Both the position numbers and the translations under genes were made by a program. A stretch of 64,000 nucleotides of DNA, taken from Octopus vulgaris (lineage: Eukaryota). Shown piece by piece: positions 21,346 to 55,396 of this stretch. The DNA lies in contig OX597831.1 in NCBI GenBank assembly GCA_951406725.2, forward strand, positions 44,206,001-44,270,000, written 5' to 3'. The notes under the pieces were generated by a model that saw only the letters and a list, made by a program, of their open reading frames with translations, made no database searches and was not told the DNA's origin. Numbering within the stretch: the stretch's first letter is position 1; every line of letters begins with the position of its first letter.

Positions 21346-21539
21346 ATTATAACCCTTACCAAATATGGTCTTTTCCATACCGACAAATCTACTAGGTGAA
21401 ATTGATTAATTTTATTAAATTAATTATATTCCACCCTTTATTGTATATATATATATATATATATATATACCGGAGTAAACACATAAATGTGAAACAAGGT
21501 GGAAAAAAGAGTACTCAAATACCAGGGGTAGAGTAATAT

Positions 21540-21707
21540 GCTTTATTTAAAAGCAGCAGAAAATACAACAAAACCTGTTACTCTGTGTTTTCACGTTCCC
21601 GTTCGTCGGACAGTTTTTGCTAGATTCTAGCAAAAACTGTCCGACGAACGGGAACGTGGAACTCAGATTAACAGGTTTTGTTGAATTTTCTGCTGCTTTT
21701 AAATAAA

Positions 21708-21708
<1 letters not shown>
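21540..21708. repeat. Palindromic end of a (TA)n-embedded repeat family (also 1690-1876 and 20590-20626)
   Basis: Arms meet at CTAGATTCTAG (21620-21630). The same symmetry centre occurs at ~1840-1850. Confidence 0.85.
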
Positions 21709-21765
<57 letters not shown>

Positions 21766-26266: not shown

Positions 26267-26367
26267 TTATAAATGAGGGTGAAAAATCGATATTAATTTA
26301 ATAATACCGTCAATTTAACACCAAGTGGCTTAGCACAAAAAACTACGGAGGAAATACAAATTTATAC

Positions 26368-26498
26368 ATAAATTATTAGAGAGTTATCCACTATGTGGAT
26401 AACTCTAGTGCTAAAAATAGCTCCGAAGCAACCACAGAAGTTGCTTCGGAGCTATTTTTAGCACTAGAGTTATCCACATAGTGGATAACTCTCTAATA

Positions 26499-26504
<6 letters not shown>
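26368..26504. repeat. Perfect hairpin, ~65-bp arms, inside a (TA)n-embedded insert
   Basis: ATAAATTATTAGAGAG...GAAGCAAC cacagaa GTTGCTTC...CTCTCTAATAATTTAT. Confidence 0.9.
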
Positions 26505-26596
<92 letters not shown>

Positions 26597-45190: not shown

Positions 45191-47357
45191 TTGATTGATT
45201 GATTGATTGATTGATTCTAGTTTCAGCTTATGAGCTGTGGCCATACTGGGGCACCGCCATTTGGTGTTGCTACTTGGTTTCACTTCATGGAGGCTTTCTA
45301 GCAACTGCTATTTGGTGCATGAGAGAGTTCGATGCAGCTGCCCTCATCTGCCCCTCCTGCCGTGAAGTTGGTTCATCTGGGACACCTGACAGGAAGAGAT
45401 CCAGCTTCATTTTAAAGACATTTGTATCCACCCCATGCAGGTCTCTCAGGTTCTTCGGGAGGATATTGAAGAGCTGTGGGCCTCGGAAGCCCAGGCTATC
45501 ACAGAATCTTGTCCTACATCTTGATGGCAGGTTTGGAGTCCTAGGCACCACGCAGTGGCGCCCAGTTCTGGCATTTGCGTAACTCTCGATGCCAAAGTTC
45601 AGGACACTTCCCTCCAGGATCTTCCAGATGTATATTATGGCATATCTTTCCCGCCTACGCTCCAGGGAATATAATTTTAATCTCTTGAGTCTTTCCCAGT
45701 AGCTTACATTCTGCATAGAGGCTATCTTCTTTGTGTAGCTTCGTTGGATCGCCTCAAGTTCTGTGATCAACTTGACACTGGATGGTGACCATAGCTGAGA
45801 GCAATAGTCAAAGTGGCTTAGGACAAGTGTCTTCCAGAGGACCATCATGGTTTCTTGTTCTCTTGTTCTAAAGGTTCTAAGAATCCAGCCAGCCAGCCGT
45901 CTACATTTCATTGTCAGTTTAGCAACATGTACATGAAAGGTCGCGTCATCACTCATGTGAATACCAAGGTCACGCACTGATTGTGCCTCTGGGATTGCAA
46001 TCCCTCCGGGTCCAGTGTATTCATTGGGTATTGCATTCAGTTTTGCATGCTGATAGTATAAAGCTTGAAACTTTCCAGCATTGAACTGCATGCTATTCTT
46101 TTCAGCCCACTTGTATATTTCGTCCAGCTCACATTGCAGGTGTTTAGTGTCCTCAGGGTTCTGTATTGCCTGTGAGACTTTTGTATCATCTGCATAACTT
46201 GTGATCGTGGCTCTCTGCGTGGCTGAGGGCATGTCTGAGAGGGCCATTATGAACAGTAGTGGTCCCAGAACAGTGCCCTGCGGAACACCGCTCACTATTT
46301 GTGTGTTAATGGAGGTGGCCCCATTGGCTACTACCACCTGACTTCTATCCTTCAGAAAGTCATGAAGCCATTCTCCCAGTTTTCCAACTATGTTGAGATC
46401 ACGCAGTTTGTGACATATCATTCCATGATCGACTTTATCAAAGGCCTTTGCAAAGTCGAGATATATCACTTCCACATTTGAGTGGTTGAGCAGCCGTTTC
46501 AGCACCCAGTCATAGTGTTGTAGGAGCTGAGTTAAACAGCTTCTCCCTGGTCGGAAACCATGTTGGGTGTCGGGCAGCAGGTCATTCTCTTCAAGGAAGG
46601 TGATCAGCTTCCTTCTGACTATTCGTTCCATGACCTTGCTGATGTGTGAGGTCAGAGAGATAGGTCTATAGTTCTTGGCTTCCGCTCTGCTACCTCCTTT
46701 ATGAATGGGGCATATTTTACCTTCCTTCAGTTTTCCTGGAAGTTTGCCAGCTGCAAGGAAGCTCTGAAAGAGGAACTGCAGTGGTCTTGCTAGGACTCTC
46801 TTACATGCTTTTAGGAGGATTGCCGGGAATCCATCGGGGCCAGTAGCTGAGTCTGTTTTCATTTCATCTATAGCCTTGGTTACATCGTCTTCCTTTATAT
46901 CGATGTAATCTATCGTCGCCGCCTCTGATTTTATATCTGCAGTGGTAAAAAAGTCAGTTGGATTGGTGATTTGGAGATGCCCAAGGGGTGGAGTGAAAAC
47001 ACTCTTGAATTGCTCATTCAGTATTTCACTTACCCTCATTGGTTTTCCTGTAAGTGTGCCATCCTTTTCAAGGAGTGGCCCTATTCTACAGTGCACTGTA
47101 GCTGTTTCTTTGGCATACCTGTAGAAAGCTCTGGGGTTAGATTTTATGTTTTCTATAGCCCAGGCTTCTTTGTCTGCTCTTTCTTTTTCATGGGAGAGTT
47201 GCAGACATTTTTCGATTTCCAACAGTTTTATTTTTAGGCGGGACTTTTCACTGCTTTCAATCTGTTTGTTTAGGCGATTTGAAAATTTCGTACGCCGTCT
47301 CATTAAAATTTTCCTCTCTCTGGGGATTTTGTTCTTGTGTGGGGATTTTGTTCTTGT
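45191..47357 (-). mobile_element. 5'-truncated non-LTR retrotransposon (LINE, CR1/L2 group): open RT ORF2 remnant, 3' UTR and (ATCA)n tail
   Basis: ORF 45285..47627 carries the RT motifs [51 protein letters not shown] and RDLGI. Real coding sequence starts at about 47357, where it abuts (TA)n. The (TGAT)n tract at 45191-45215 is an (ATCA)n tail on the minus strand. Clade assigned from remembered motif style. Confidence 0.93.
45285..47357 (-). CDS. Reverse transcriptase (LINE ORF2, N-terminally truncated, no APE domain visible)
   Basis: About 690 uninterrupted codons with RT motifs. The first ~90 aa of the 780-aa track ORF are microsatellite read-through. Confidence 0.85.
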
Positions 47358-47389
<32 letters not shown>

Positions 47390-47485
47390 TACATATATGT
47401 ATATATATGCATATATGTATATATATACATATATATGTATATATACATACATATTTATGTATATATATATATACACATACATATG

Positions 47486-47540
<55 letters not shown>

Positions 47541-47575
47541 ACATATATATGTGTGTGTGTGTAATATTATAATAT

Positions 47576-48410
47576 ACAGGGTGCGGTAAATAAATTGTCG
47601 ACATTTCATACTTTTAATTTTGCGCATGCGTATTGGCTGTTTTTAGCTTTGTCGACTACCCGGTATGGTAGCGTCGGTTGGCACCGTCTGTGAGAAACAA
47701 GCAGCACCATGACGCAATTCACACCGCCAGAAATTTAGAAAGGACATGCTGTACCTCTTGGCATTCGCGCCAGAAGCCCCAGGACGAACATTTCAGGGTG
47801 TTTGGGTGTCAATCTGAGGTCAGTTCAATTTGTGGACATGTAGCGAGAGCGATAAAAATCAAACATCCACTCAACATCATGGTGTTTGGACTAGTGATAG
47901 CGATGTTATGCTTCCATTCATCTTCCTACACGGCCTCAGACTCGACGCGGAGGCCTACATCAAGTTCCTGGAGAAGGTACTGCTGCTCTTTGTCAAGAGG
48001 GTGGCTGCTGGAAGACCCTATGTCTGGCAACAGGACTCTGTACCATGACACACAAACAGAAAAACCCAGTCATGACAGTCAGACAATTTCTGCGACCACG
48101 TCACCCCTAACATCTGGCCACCTAACTCCTTAGATTGGAACTCGCTTCATTGTTATGTGTGGAACGCAACTGAGCGAGGGACCAACAAAACTCCCTGAAA
48201 CACCAAAGATGAACTGAAGGCAAGGATTATGGCAGCATTCACCAACTTAAAAAAGAACACCATCCAGAAGATTCTGAGGTCGTCTGGTGGCCGTGGTTGA
48301 AGCTAATGGCGATTTCCTTGAATAAATTTACTCTTTAGTATTTCAGGATATTTTTATGCAATTTTGGTAAATATATCTGTTAAAATGAGATGCCAGATAC
48401 ACGTGCACAC
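47576..48410 (+). mobile_element. Degenerate Tc1/mariner-superfamily DNA transposon (transposase relic)
   Basis: Fragmented frames give KHPLNIMVFGLV, YIKFLEKVLL..VAAGRPYVWQQDSVP and WPPNS.D.NSLHCYVW, matching QQD.AP.H and WPPNSPDLNPLD. Begins with TA|CAGGGTG. Confidence 0.8.
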
Positions 48411-52673: not shown

Positions 52674-53844
52674 TAAGTAAATAAAAGATGGAGAGATAAG
52701 AGACAAAAAGTTGCTAGACTCCTTTCAGGTGGCGTGTTGGCAGAAGCGTTAGCACGCCGGGTCAAATATTTAGCAGCATTTTGTCCGTCTCTTCGATCTG
52801 AGATCAAATTCCGACCAGGTCGACTTTGACTTTCATCCTTTCCCAGTCGATAAAATATGTACCAGCTAAACACCGGAGTCGATTTAATCGACTTACCCCC
52901 AGTCCATGAGAGAGAGAGAGAGAGAGTGTTATCCTTCGGTTTGCAAGGTAGCTTGGTTCCGTAAGTCTAGCGTACAATCGAAATAATATAAAGGGAAATA
53001 TGTTTTTAATGACATCGATAAACACAAACAAAATTTAAATAATTACACTAGGTAACATAGTTTTATTATGCAAGTTCTGTTTCGCTTACATTTTGTTTTG
53101 TTTTTGCATTATGTGTGTTTTCCTATCAAATTTAGGACGATGAATACAAACAAAAACACGTCATTAGTTTTTGTACACCAAGATAGATTTGTGAATTCAC
53201 AATATTTCTTCTAATACAATTTATTGTAATTCGGCTGCATTATATAACATATAGAAATCATATAATATAATGAACAGTTATGAATAATGCAACTACGTTG
53301 TAATAACTACAGTGACACGATGAATCAAAAAGCATCAATAACCTTTTAATTTTCTTCTAGCACAACTCATACAGTTTCCAAGATACAACTTACCTGAGTA
53401 CTTGCAAAACAATGCTCTTATTTACTATTTACAATGGAATGTTCCAGAACAATAAAACTTAAGCAATTCATCAAATAACTAAACATGTCTTCATGGGCTT
53501 GCCCAGCCAGTCTGTTTATTAATTAATATTCTATTAATAGTATCTCATTGTTTTGCGCCTCGTTATCTGTATAAGTATTTCAATGGATTAATCTATCATG
53601 TTTGATTCAGGAAAGTTCTACGTAGATACAGATGTGTGATACGAGTGTAATTTCAACACATACATCGTTACGCATGATAGAAAATAATAGCTGATATAAC
53701 TGACCAGATACTGGTGCTATTATGAGAAGAATTTTGACATTGTGTTCAGCATAATAAAGTTCTATATTTAAGAGATATGGAATTATGTACATTATTTATA
53801 TTGCTTACATTTGATGGATAGTTGTCCTCATCTTGTTTGTTGTT

Positions 53845-53890
53845 AACACAACGTTTCTGCTGATATACTCTCCAGTCTTCATCAGGTGTC
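53845..53890 (-). ncRNA. Hammerhead motif (same family, stem II mutated)
   Basis: GACAC-CUGAUGA-AGACUG...CAGCA-GAAACGUU-GUGUU. Confidence 0.6.
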
Positions 53891-53930
53891 TTGGGGAAAT
53901 TTCGGACCTGGGTTCGATTCCAGGCAGTGA

Positions 53931-53987
<57 letters not shown>

Positions 53988-53994
53988 CAACAAC

Positions 53995-54035
<41 letters not shown>

Positions 54036-54120
54036 TAATAATAATAACAATAACAATGATAATAATAACAATAATAATAATAACAATAACAACAATAATA
54101 ATAACAACAACAACAACAAC

Positions 54121-54188
<68 letters not shown>

Positions 54189-54191
<3 letters not shown>

Positions 54192-55107
54192 ATGCATATA
54201 ATAAGGTTTTAGCCATAAATTCCTTAGTAGTACCAGTTGTTCTTTATAGCTTCAATGTGCTTAACTGGAATACCAGTGAAATAATGAAAATTGACAGAAC
54301 AATCCGCAAGCTACTGACTTGTAATAAGATGCACCATCCAAAGGCAGACGTGATCGCCTTTACCTTCTGACCCAAAATGCCGATTCTGTAACGATGAGAT
54401 TGAAACAATAGACTACCTAATCTCAGGGTGTAGAGTCTTAGCACCTGCAGAATATAAAGCAAGACATGACAGAGTCGGCCAGTATTTACATTGGACAATA
54501 TGTCGGCATTATAAACCGCTGACAAATGGTGTAAACATCATCCTGAAGCTGTGACTGAGGTAGAAAATGTGTCGATTCTATGGGACTTTCCCGTGCAGAC
54601 CGACAAGACTATAAAAGCTAATAAACCGGATATTATTATAAAAGATCAGACAAAAAGGATGTGTTTATTAATTGACATGAGTATTCCCTGTGATCACAAT
54701 ATAGCGGCGAAAGAATTTGACAAGATTAGTAAATATAAAGACCTACTAATAGAAATTGAAAAAATGTGGCATCTCAAGGCGACTACATTACCAGTGATTG
54801 TAGGATCTCTAGGAATGATAAAAAAAAGGTACTGAAACCTATTTGAAAATAATTCCAGGCTTACCATCCCTACAAGAAGTGCAAAAAATCGTATTAACTG
54901 GAACGGCTCATGTACTAAGAAGAGCACTATCGCTGTGAAAATAACATCCATCCATGAATTTATTTATTTATTAATTTTTAAATACACATTTTATCTGTGA
55001 ATTTGCGCGTGTAATCTGGGAATGCATACAATGCCCTCCTCTGCCCTATGTGTATGGAAAACACTCGGCGAGAAACGGAAGAAAATTTGAAGAAAGAAAG
55101 AAAAAAC
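54189..55107 (+). mobile_element. 5'-truncated, internally deleted R4/Dong-type non-LTR retrotransposon (RLE endonuclease) inserted in (AAT)n
   Basis: Translates to NAYNKVLAINSLVVPVVLYSF, then the zinc-knuckle region CRFC..ETIDYLISGC..YKARHD, then ILWDFPVQTDKTIKANKPDII..LIDMSIP..KISKYKDL (PD-D/ExK) and LQEVQKIVLTGTAHVLR. Flanked by (AAT)n on both sides; Dong-type elements are known to target TAA repeats. Confidence 0.88.
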
Positions 55108-55184
55108 ATAATAATAATAATAATAATAATAATAACATCGAAAAATACCTTAAGAATGATTACCCAGGTTCGAAATTTCCCCAA

Positions 55185-55230
55185 GACACCTGATGAAGGC
55201 TGGAGGATATATCAGCCGAAACGTTGTGTT
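55185..55230 (+). ncRNA. Minimal type I hammerhead ribozyme motif
   Basis: GACAC-CUGAUGA-A-GGCUG-loop-CAGCC-GAAA-CG-UU-GUGUU. Stem I GACAC/GUGUU, stem II GGCUG/CAGCC, palindromic AACGUU stem III. Confidence 0.8.
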
Positions 55231-55396
55231 AACAATAAACAAGATGAAGACAAATATTCGTCGAATGTAAGTAATGTAAATAATTGTGTTCAGTATGCTG
55301 AAAATATATATAAGAGTATCATTAAATCAAGTGAAACAATTTTTCTCGTTAAAAAAGATTTTTTTTATTGAGATGAGAACAATAAATACGATTTTA

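Follow-up and report, generated by a model that had tools for sequence, protein, structure and literature searches.

When two arms of one insertion lie head to head and only one of them carries the terminal tip, the question arises of how the other arm came to end early. It is raised here by a 64-kb window of the Octopus vulgaris genome (the whole stretch of DNA analysed, 64,000 nucleotides), in which we found three copies of one unit. In this unit a tRNA-like head is followed by an (AAT)n tract and then by a tail module, ~180 nt long, that includes a hammerhead motif and the terminal tip. Two of the copies, 1 and 3, are inverted, and a sequence-only reading of the window had placed the tip on the short arm only and had proposed mobilisation of the type seen in Penelope-like elements (PLEs), independently of the ribozyme.

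Copy 3 lies between two exact 11-bp target-site duplications (TSDs) of sequence ATTGTGTTCAG, at 53739..53749 and 55283..55293 (both + strand). Its inverted short arm (53751..53915, - strand) covers tail module positions 25-180 with the hammerhead motif and one extra 9-nt unit, and the PLE tail, or tip, is confined to this arm (53751..53790, - strand; full-length copies show it leading on into the ORF). The segment described earlier as 53758-53915 was correctly recognized apart from its left end, the tip reaching ~7 nt further, to 53751. The two arms meet at a GTTC microhomology inside the B box (53912..53915, no strand assigned), an exact 4-base overlap just as had been read from the letters. 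On the + strand there follow a remnant of the tRNA-like head from the B box to the head end (53912..53934), the left part of the (AAT/AAC)n tract of the pseudo-LTR, or pLTR (53935..54189), a nested 5'-truncated LINE with CCHC and restriction-like endonuclease motifs (54190..55109), the right part of the (AAT)n tract (55110..55135) and the long arm without tip (55136..55285), which holds tail module positions 1-150 of ~180, covers the ORF-start region and includes a predicted minimal type I hammerhead motif (55183..55232, + strand; CUGAUGA, an extra A, GGCUG/CAGCC, GAAA and a palindromic helix III). Copy 1 lies between exact 10-bp TSDs, ATATTTGCGT, at 2482..2491 and 3026..3035 (+ strand). Its long arm without tip (2496..2962, - strand) comprises the head from position 54, the tract and tail module positions 1-148 and bears the markers of a minor subfamily, and its inverted short arm with the tip, previously described as a 3' segment abutting the truncated head, is refined to 2962..3029 (+ strand; tail module 113-180), with a 1-base overlap with the head at 2962. 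As had also been noted, both long arms stop before the tip, at 55285 (position 150) in copy 3 and at 2496 (position 148) in copy 1. The exact direct repeats around both arms had been overlooked; copies 1 and 3 are single insertion events, each within one TSD. Copy 2 (13123..13474, - strand) is a single, non-inverted pLTR copy with a tip, which starts at the hairpin before the A box and lies between direct repeats of 7 bp (at 13116 and 13475).

An unrelated nested LINE fragment (54190-55109, ~920 bp) takes up the greater part of the 53758-55285 span and has 50-57% identity to a LINE sitting in the same tract of locus L052. R4/Dong elements target (TAA)n, as described in parts of PMC7998251, and from this target the nested LINE is likely of the R4/Dong type; it would have inserted into the (AAT)n tract after the pLTR insertion. 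LINEs with a restriction-like endonuclease were also seen in or beside the tract at L004, L052, L229, L285, L292 and L316, and the pLTR tract is likely the target of an R4/Dong-type element in several copies.

The window holds other repeats as well. Another LINE contributes a long open frame at 45285-47642 (- strand) that contains an RT domain (PF00078, E 1.2e-30), and its end is duplicated at near identity as a fragment at 29919-30331. Long near-perfect inverted repeats of 92-99% identity (9261-9515, 21536-21713, 26354-26518 and 59337-59704) are probably MITE-like elements, and at least three further abundant SINE-like repeat families have many copies in the window (1288-1656, 12209-12372, 35494-35657 and others).

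To see how general the one-sided tip is, loci were collected by four similarity searches without the tip in the query; 120 were fetched, and removal of 4 self-hits left 116. A random 960 kb outside the window held 6 insertions, too few for statistics, and similarity-ranked and pattern-ordered sets were therefore used. A head-to-head partner is present in 68 of the 116 loci and was not detected in 48. After exclusion of five pairs in which one arm ends before position 134, 63 were classifiable, and exactly one tip is found in 60 of them, none in 2 and two in 1; on inspection the sole tip/tip pair, L204, ends in a small proximal-type piece. The excess of one-tip pairs is significant (p 4.5e-15) against a ceiling of 50%, the maximum under independent choice per arm. 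An independent position-ordered set of 30 loci gave 12 two-arm insertions (11 with one tip), 17 single ones and 1 unclassed. Inversions are not rare: two-arm insertions, which these searches over-sample, make up 68/116 of the similarity-ranked loci, 12/29 of the classed position-ordered loci and 3/9 of the insertions in unselected blocks, including 1/6 in the 960 kb outside the window.

The 3' ends of the arms form two discrete clusters, at tail-module positions 138-151, or ~143-149 for the discrete end itself, and 170-185. Single-arm copies bear either end (17 tip, 29 short), and the same two ends are loose-end peaks in raw RNA reads from a single study (three runs) and recur in contigs of four further runs. 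Which arm receives the tip is not fixed: 47 one-tip pairs have a junction gap of at most 30 nt and were compared, the 13 with larger gaps being left out, and in 24 of them the shorter arm carries the tip, in 16 the longer, while in 7 the arms are of equal length; its placement on the short arm, correct for copies 1 and 3, does not hold as a rule. Junctions are varied, the 68 examined comprising 29 overlaps of 1-12 nt, 7 longer palindromes, 2 blunt joints, 16 gaps of 2-30 nt and 14 larger gaps. A flanking repeat scoring at least 9 was found in 33/63 pairs as against 7/630 shuffled ones, and in 10/36 single-arm copies as against 5/360 shuffled; with one TSD around both, the arms are not independent neighbours with target sites of their own. 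Thirty of the 63 pairs lack a clear TSD at this strict cut-off, which counts against a model of a single event at two nicks. In an empty-site test at L013, no joint across the insertion was found among the matches listed, and contigs of three runs enter the insertion from both flanks.

The nature of the unit can be read from several loci in which coding sequence runs straight into the head. When the coding piece upstream of the head was used as a query, 30 loci were retrieved that show RT motifs together with a GIY-YIG-like end. One family fragment, L050, matches PF00078 (RT, E 1.8e-08), and relatives of 825-841 aa align along the family's 300-aa C-terminal fragment; this alignment places Y..PC.C...Y.GET and His motifs, which we take to be of GIY-YIG type, at the C-terminus, and no Cys-rich linker is visible in it between RT and EN. 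The Pfam GIY-YIG model gave only a sub-threshold match (E 0.017), in the relative P0009, with none in the family's own L052 fragment, and a PDB search returned only distant RTs. L111, full-length but broken, carries the module at either end and one broken ORF spanning pLTR to 3' UTR; in L111-L114 the ORF takes over where the tip ends the pLTR, with the first ATG at tail position 21. Because the module stands at both ends of L111 and the tip runs into the ORF, we infer that the unit is a pLTR and the tip a PLE tail. To judge from its sequence, the unit is the pLTR of an autonomous PLE that has an RT plus, at the C-terminus, a GIY-YIG-like domain, more than a merely PLE-mobilised one, and the tip reads as the classic 30-40 bp PLE tail, made of ORF sequence. 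Pen2a_Av of Adineta vaga is described in part in PMC3846280 with a pLTR and tail as found here, and a general PLE scheme with pLTR and tail appears in the relevant parts of PMC8557442. No intact ORF was seen in the family loci examined and no ORF match in 1,024 kb of unselected sequence (the 960 kb and the window); most copies are short and non-coding. The pLTR motif agrees with the features of a minimal type I hammerhead as outlined in PMC4209133, and on motif inspection the predicted core is intact in 186/249 arms. Rfam gave no hammerhead or tRNA for the PLE pLTR in the whole window, four loci and two short stretches, its matches being mostly microsatellite-driven miRNA noise. The proposal of PLE-type mobilisation apart from the ribozyme is borne out by the identity of the unit as a PLE pLTR, by the restriction to one tail and by the single TSD around both arms.

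When these results are set beside published work on the PAc protein, a mechanism can be suggested. In vitro, according to the parts of PMC11167929 that describe it, PAc cuts both strands, extends them and begins copying at two adjacent internal sites that delimit the tail, and from this both-strand cutting with two internal starts we infer priming from both nicks for the octopus family. Copies 1 and 3 are TSD-flanked head-to-head insertions of the 5'-truncated pLTR, and we consider it probable that in both of them the two nicks primed one template at two fixed start sites. The PLE enzyme would nick both target strands ~10 bp apart, and each nick would prime copying of that one template at one of two fixed internal starts ~30 nt apart. 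One nick would prime at the distal site and give the arm with the tail; the other would prime at the proximal site, in the (AATGTAAAT)n repeat, and give the arm without it. Both cDNAs would run toward the template 5' end and become linked through microhomology (in copy 3, GTTC), so that either arm could end up shorter, and if each start site is usable once per RNA, one tail per pair would follow. Most templates presumably begin near a hairpin 13 nt before the tRNA-type A box. The one-sided tail, on this evidence, likely records the copying of one template from both cut target ends.

The arms can be asked directly whether they share a template. Among 102 pairs, 78 have both t59 letters (59 TT, 12 AA, 6 discordant and 1 with another base), so that t59 is concordant in 71/77; h107 is concordant in 36/38, with 1 other base. 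A rare mixed haplotype is common to both arms in L023 and L297. This agreement at t59 and h107 argues that both arms usually come from one source. Arm-to-arm divergence is 6.9% at non-CpG positions, near the 7.1% of random pairs, and it is only the variants shared between arms that are in excess (12 against 5.4 expected, p 0.0045). The t59 discordance of 6/77 pairs exceeds the ~1.6/60 expected from recurrent mutation in the tested subset by a rough estimate (P ~0.005), and some pairs may use two templates.

The tail-less arms end within the (AATGTAAAT)n repeat. An extra 9-nt unit is present on the tail-less arm and missing from its partner in 14/41 pairs with a two-unit tip arm, one of the 14 resembling chance (66/91 one-tip pairs were parsable for this count). 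Slippage at priming had been considered as the source of these units, but their value as proof of it is weakened, since the number of units differs among tip arms as well (1 to 4); the extra units are suggestive only and may reflect slippage in any model or post-insertion change. Arm lengths do not correlate with the partner's 9-nt unit number (p 0.45-1.0).

A self-primed hairpin, in which antisense RNA or cDNA folds back to give a full hairpin and the endonuclease trims ~30 nt off one arm, is the best of the alternatives and appears unlikely to us; a hairpin model with trimming at integration is proposed in parts of PMC3846280 and PMC8557442. It likewise predicts a single tail and shared markers. 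The long palindromic overlaps at 7 of 68 junctions, the palindromic junctions at the GCCC-AC-GGGC hairpin and the short mirrors that are common at this hairpin speak for it and against priming from two nicks, and they indicate that snap-back self-priming does occur. To this can be added that 20/37 non-autonomous-type starts (4 of them from L235) have AT before the hairpin where the coding element has TT, a change that a cDNA reaching its end at this point and then folding back would leave. The sense-cDNA version of the model is excluded: in 24 of the 40 unequal clean pairs it is the shorter arm that carries the tip, which a fold-back copy of the first cDNA could not produce. Against the model in general, most junctions are asymmetric, the short arm is no plain prefix of its partner in 14/41 pairs, single-arm copies carry either 3' end, and two RT start sites are demonstrated in vitro for PAc in the relevant parts of PMC11167929.

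Two RNAs on a dimeric protein, with an asymmetric complex priming one at each start site, would make strand displacement unnecessary and would suit both the predicted PAc dimer (as given in parts of PMC11167929) and the 6/77 pairs that are discordant at t59, above the rough mutation estimate; the 71/77 concordance and the haplotype shared within L023 and L297 would, however, demand a single source for both RNAs, and the one-tail rule would require an extra asymmetry, so that we regard this account as less probable again than the hairpin. It is very improbable that the arms inserted separately side by side or were inverted later, or that the unit is an ordinary tRNA SINE mobilised by a LINE. 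Even though the head has A and B boxes and most copies are short and non-coding, a single TSD surrounds both arms, one tail is the rule, the head belongs to an ORF-bearing element, and what forms the 3' end is the start of the PLE's own ORF. A separate non-autonomous tRNA SINE relying on a LINE was likewise rejected, the head being colinear with the PLE ORF end and both subfamilies ORF-linked.

With priming from both nicks as the preferred account, it can be asked where its templates begin. The head has a consensus A box at position 51 and, 33 nt later, a B box with one mismatch to the SINE promoter pattern, which in the portion of PMC8969392 that treats it consists of an A box, a 33-nt spacer and a B box with 5' ends 10-15 nt off; ARAGORN makes only a relaxed, atypical tRNA call on it. 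For 114 anchor arms not selected by the head, 46 5' ends lie at head 37-52, 10 in the hairpin mirror zone, 10 still more upstream (of which 5 are within the ORF), 22 at head 53-118, 22 hidden in the tract and 4 in the tail. The pile-up stops at the small hairpin that precedes the A box by 13 nt and hints at SINE-like templates made by Pol III; a stall at the hairpin is an alternative source of such a pile-up. There is no T4 run within the pLTR unit, and the raw RNA reads are strand-balanced without a start peak and thus uninformative on a Pol III start. Loci selected by the head were also examined for the head as a free SINE: 5/29 have no tail nearby, other repeat sequence follows the (AAT)n tract in 4 of these 5, and the fifth, L282, is unexplained. 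In L192, L328 and L212 (head 27-47), some long arms have the hairpin loop mirrored with a short upstream mirror only; such loops might stem from inverted copies re-used as templates.

It is possible, if not quite probable, that the family is a PLE with its own SINE, the tRNA-derived Pol III promoter of the pLTR giving short RNAs that would start ~13 nt before the A box and each be double-primed at both nicks. If true, the internal copying start would mean that every tail-bearing stump can re-template itself, and the thousands of pairs would be a countable fossil record for deciding between published models of PLE inversion.

Extrapolation from the 6 insertions in 960 kb gives a genome copy number of roughly 17,000, with a wide margin. 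A minor subfamily is defined by two linked markers, t59 and h107 (33/37 vs 9/100), and a 37-mer of it has 838 exact matches in the genome; ORF-linked copies occur in both subfamilies. The minor subfamily is seen in copy 1 (window 2560 and 2907) and in L311-L340, with one change at a variable position of the hammerhead core (CUGAAGA). Some arms have (GAA)n or (CTT)n runs in place of the (AAT)n tract (L019, L022, L030 and L248).

In L1 twin priming, an inversion is joined by microhomology within one TSD and the two segments do not overlap. The octopus PLE is alike in its microhomology-joined inversion within one TSD, but its arms duplicate the same sequence; a literature search on twin priming in PLEs found nothing relevant. 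The nearest descriptions are of other PLEs. Pen2a_Av and the EN+ PLEs, in the parts of PMC3846280 and PMC8557442 that cover them, share with the octopus family a pLTR that includes the ORF start, an adjacent inverted and 5'-truncated pLTR, a 30-40 bp tail at one end, a TSD of ~9-10 bp and junction palindromes. The octopus family differs from them in its thousands of mostly pLTR-only copies, in the tRNA-type head (with A and B boxes) and the (AAT)n tract of its pLTR, and in that the one-tail rule has been counted. Poseidon_Ac (PAc) of the green anole, as presented in portions of PMC11167929, likewise has an RT followed by a C-terminal GIY-YIG (in the octopus family, a GIY-YIG-like domain), a hammerhead overlapping the ORF start and a tail bounded by two internal RT starts, with both strands cut and extended (in PAc). 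No tRNA-type head is reported for it in those portions, the proximal end of the octopus family falls within a 9-nt repeat whose units vary in number, and the likeness is by description, not by tree.

Non-LTR retrozymes, in the relevant text of 10.64898/2026.07.22.740005 and PMC4209133, are likewise short and non-coding, show relatedness to PLE pLTRs and carry a minimal type I hammerhead, and non-coding pLTR derivatives are already described (10.64898/2026.07.22.740005). They form tandem arrays, whereas octopus copies are nearly all monomers or head-to-head pairs: a multi-unit array was found in 1/116 loci (L235) and partial tandems in a few more, with none in the window. At L235:810-1857, four units lie head to tail, the proximal 3' end (t143) joined directly to the hairpin start (h37), an arrangement like a retrozyme array or repeated template jumping. 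With tRNA-derived SINEs, as characterized in parts of PMC8969392, the octopus units share the A box, 33-nt spacer and B box, 5' ends ~13 nt before the A box, short length and TSDs; they differ in that the head lies within an autonomous element, the 3' end is that of a PLE and not of a LINE, and Pol III transcription is putative.

A literature search found no tRNA- or Pol III-headed PLE and no PLE-mobilised SINE; Repbase and Dfam lay outside it, and the family may be catalogued there. A cephalopod paper names Penelope and Dong-R4 among its repeat families, and the part of its text available makes no mention of a hammerhead (PMC13282606); a second one, PMC6962438, contributed nothing further. 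Already published for PLEs are an inverted pLTR, a tail on one side, a TSD, palindromes at junctions and a minimal hammerhead, and the unusual trait of the octopus family is the tRNA-type A/B-box head inside the pLTR. The origin of PLE inverted copies and of the one-sided tail is stated as unresolved in sections of PMC8557442 and PMC11167929, and the family counts bear on this mechanism, with one tail per pair, on either arm and mostly from one template. For annotation, such stumps resemble SINEs or hairpin elements, yet they are the ends of PLEs.
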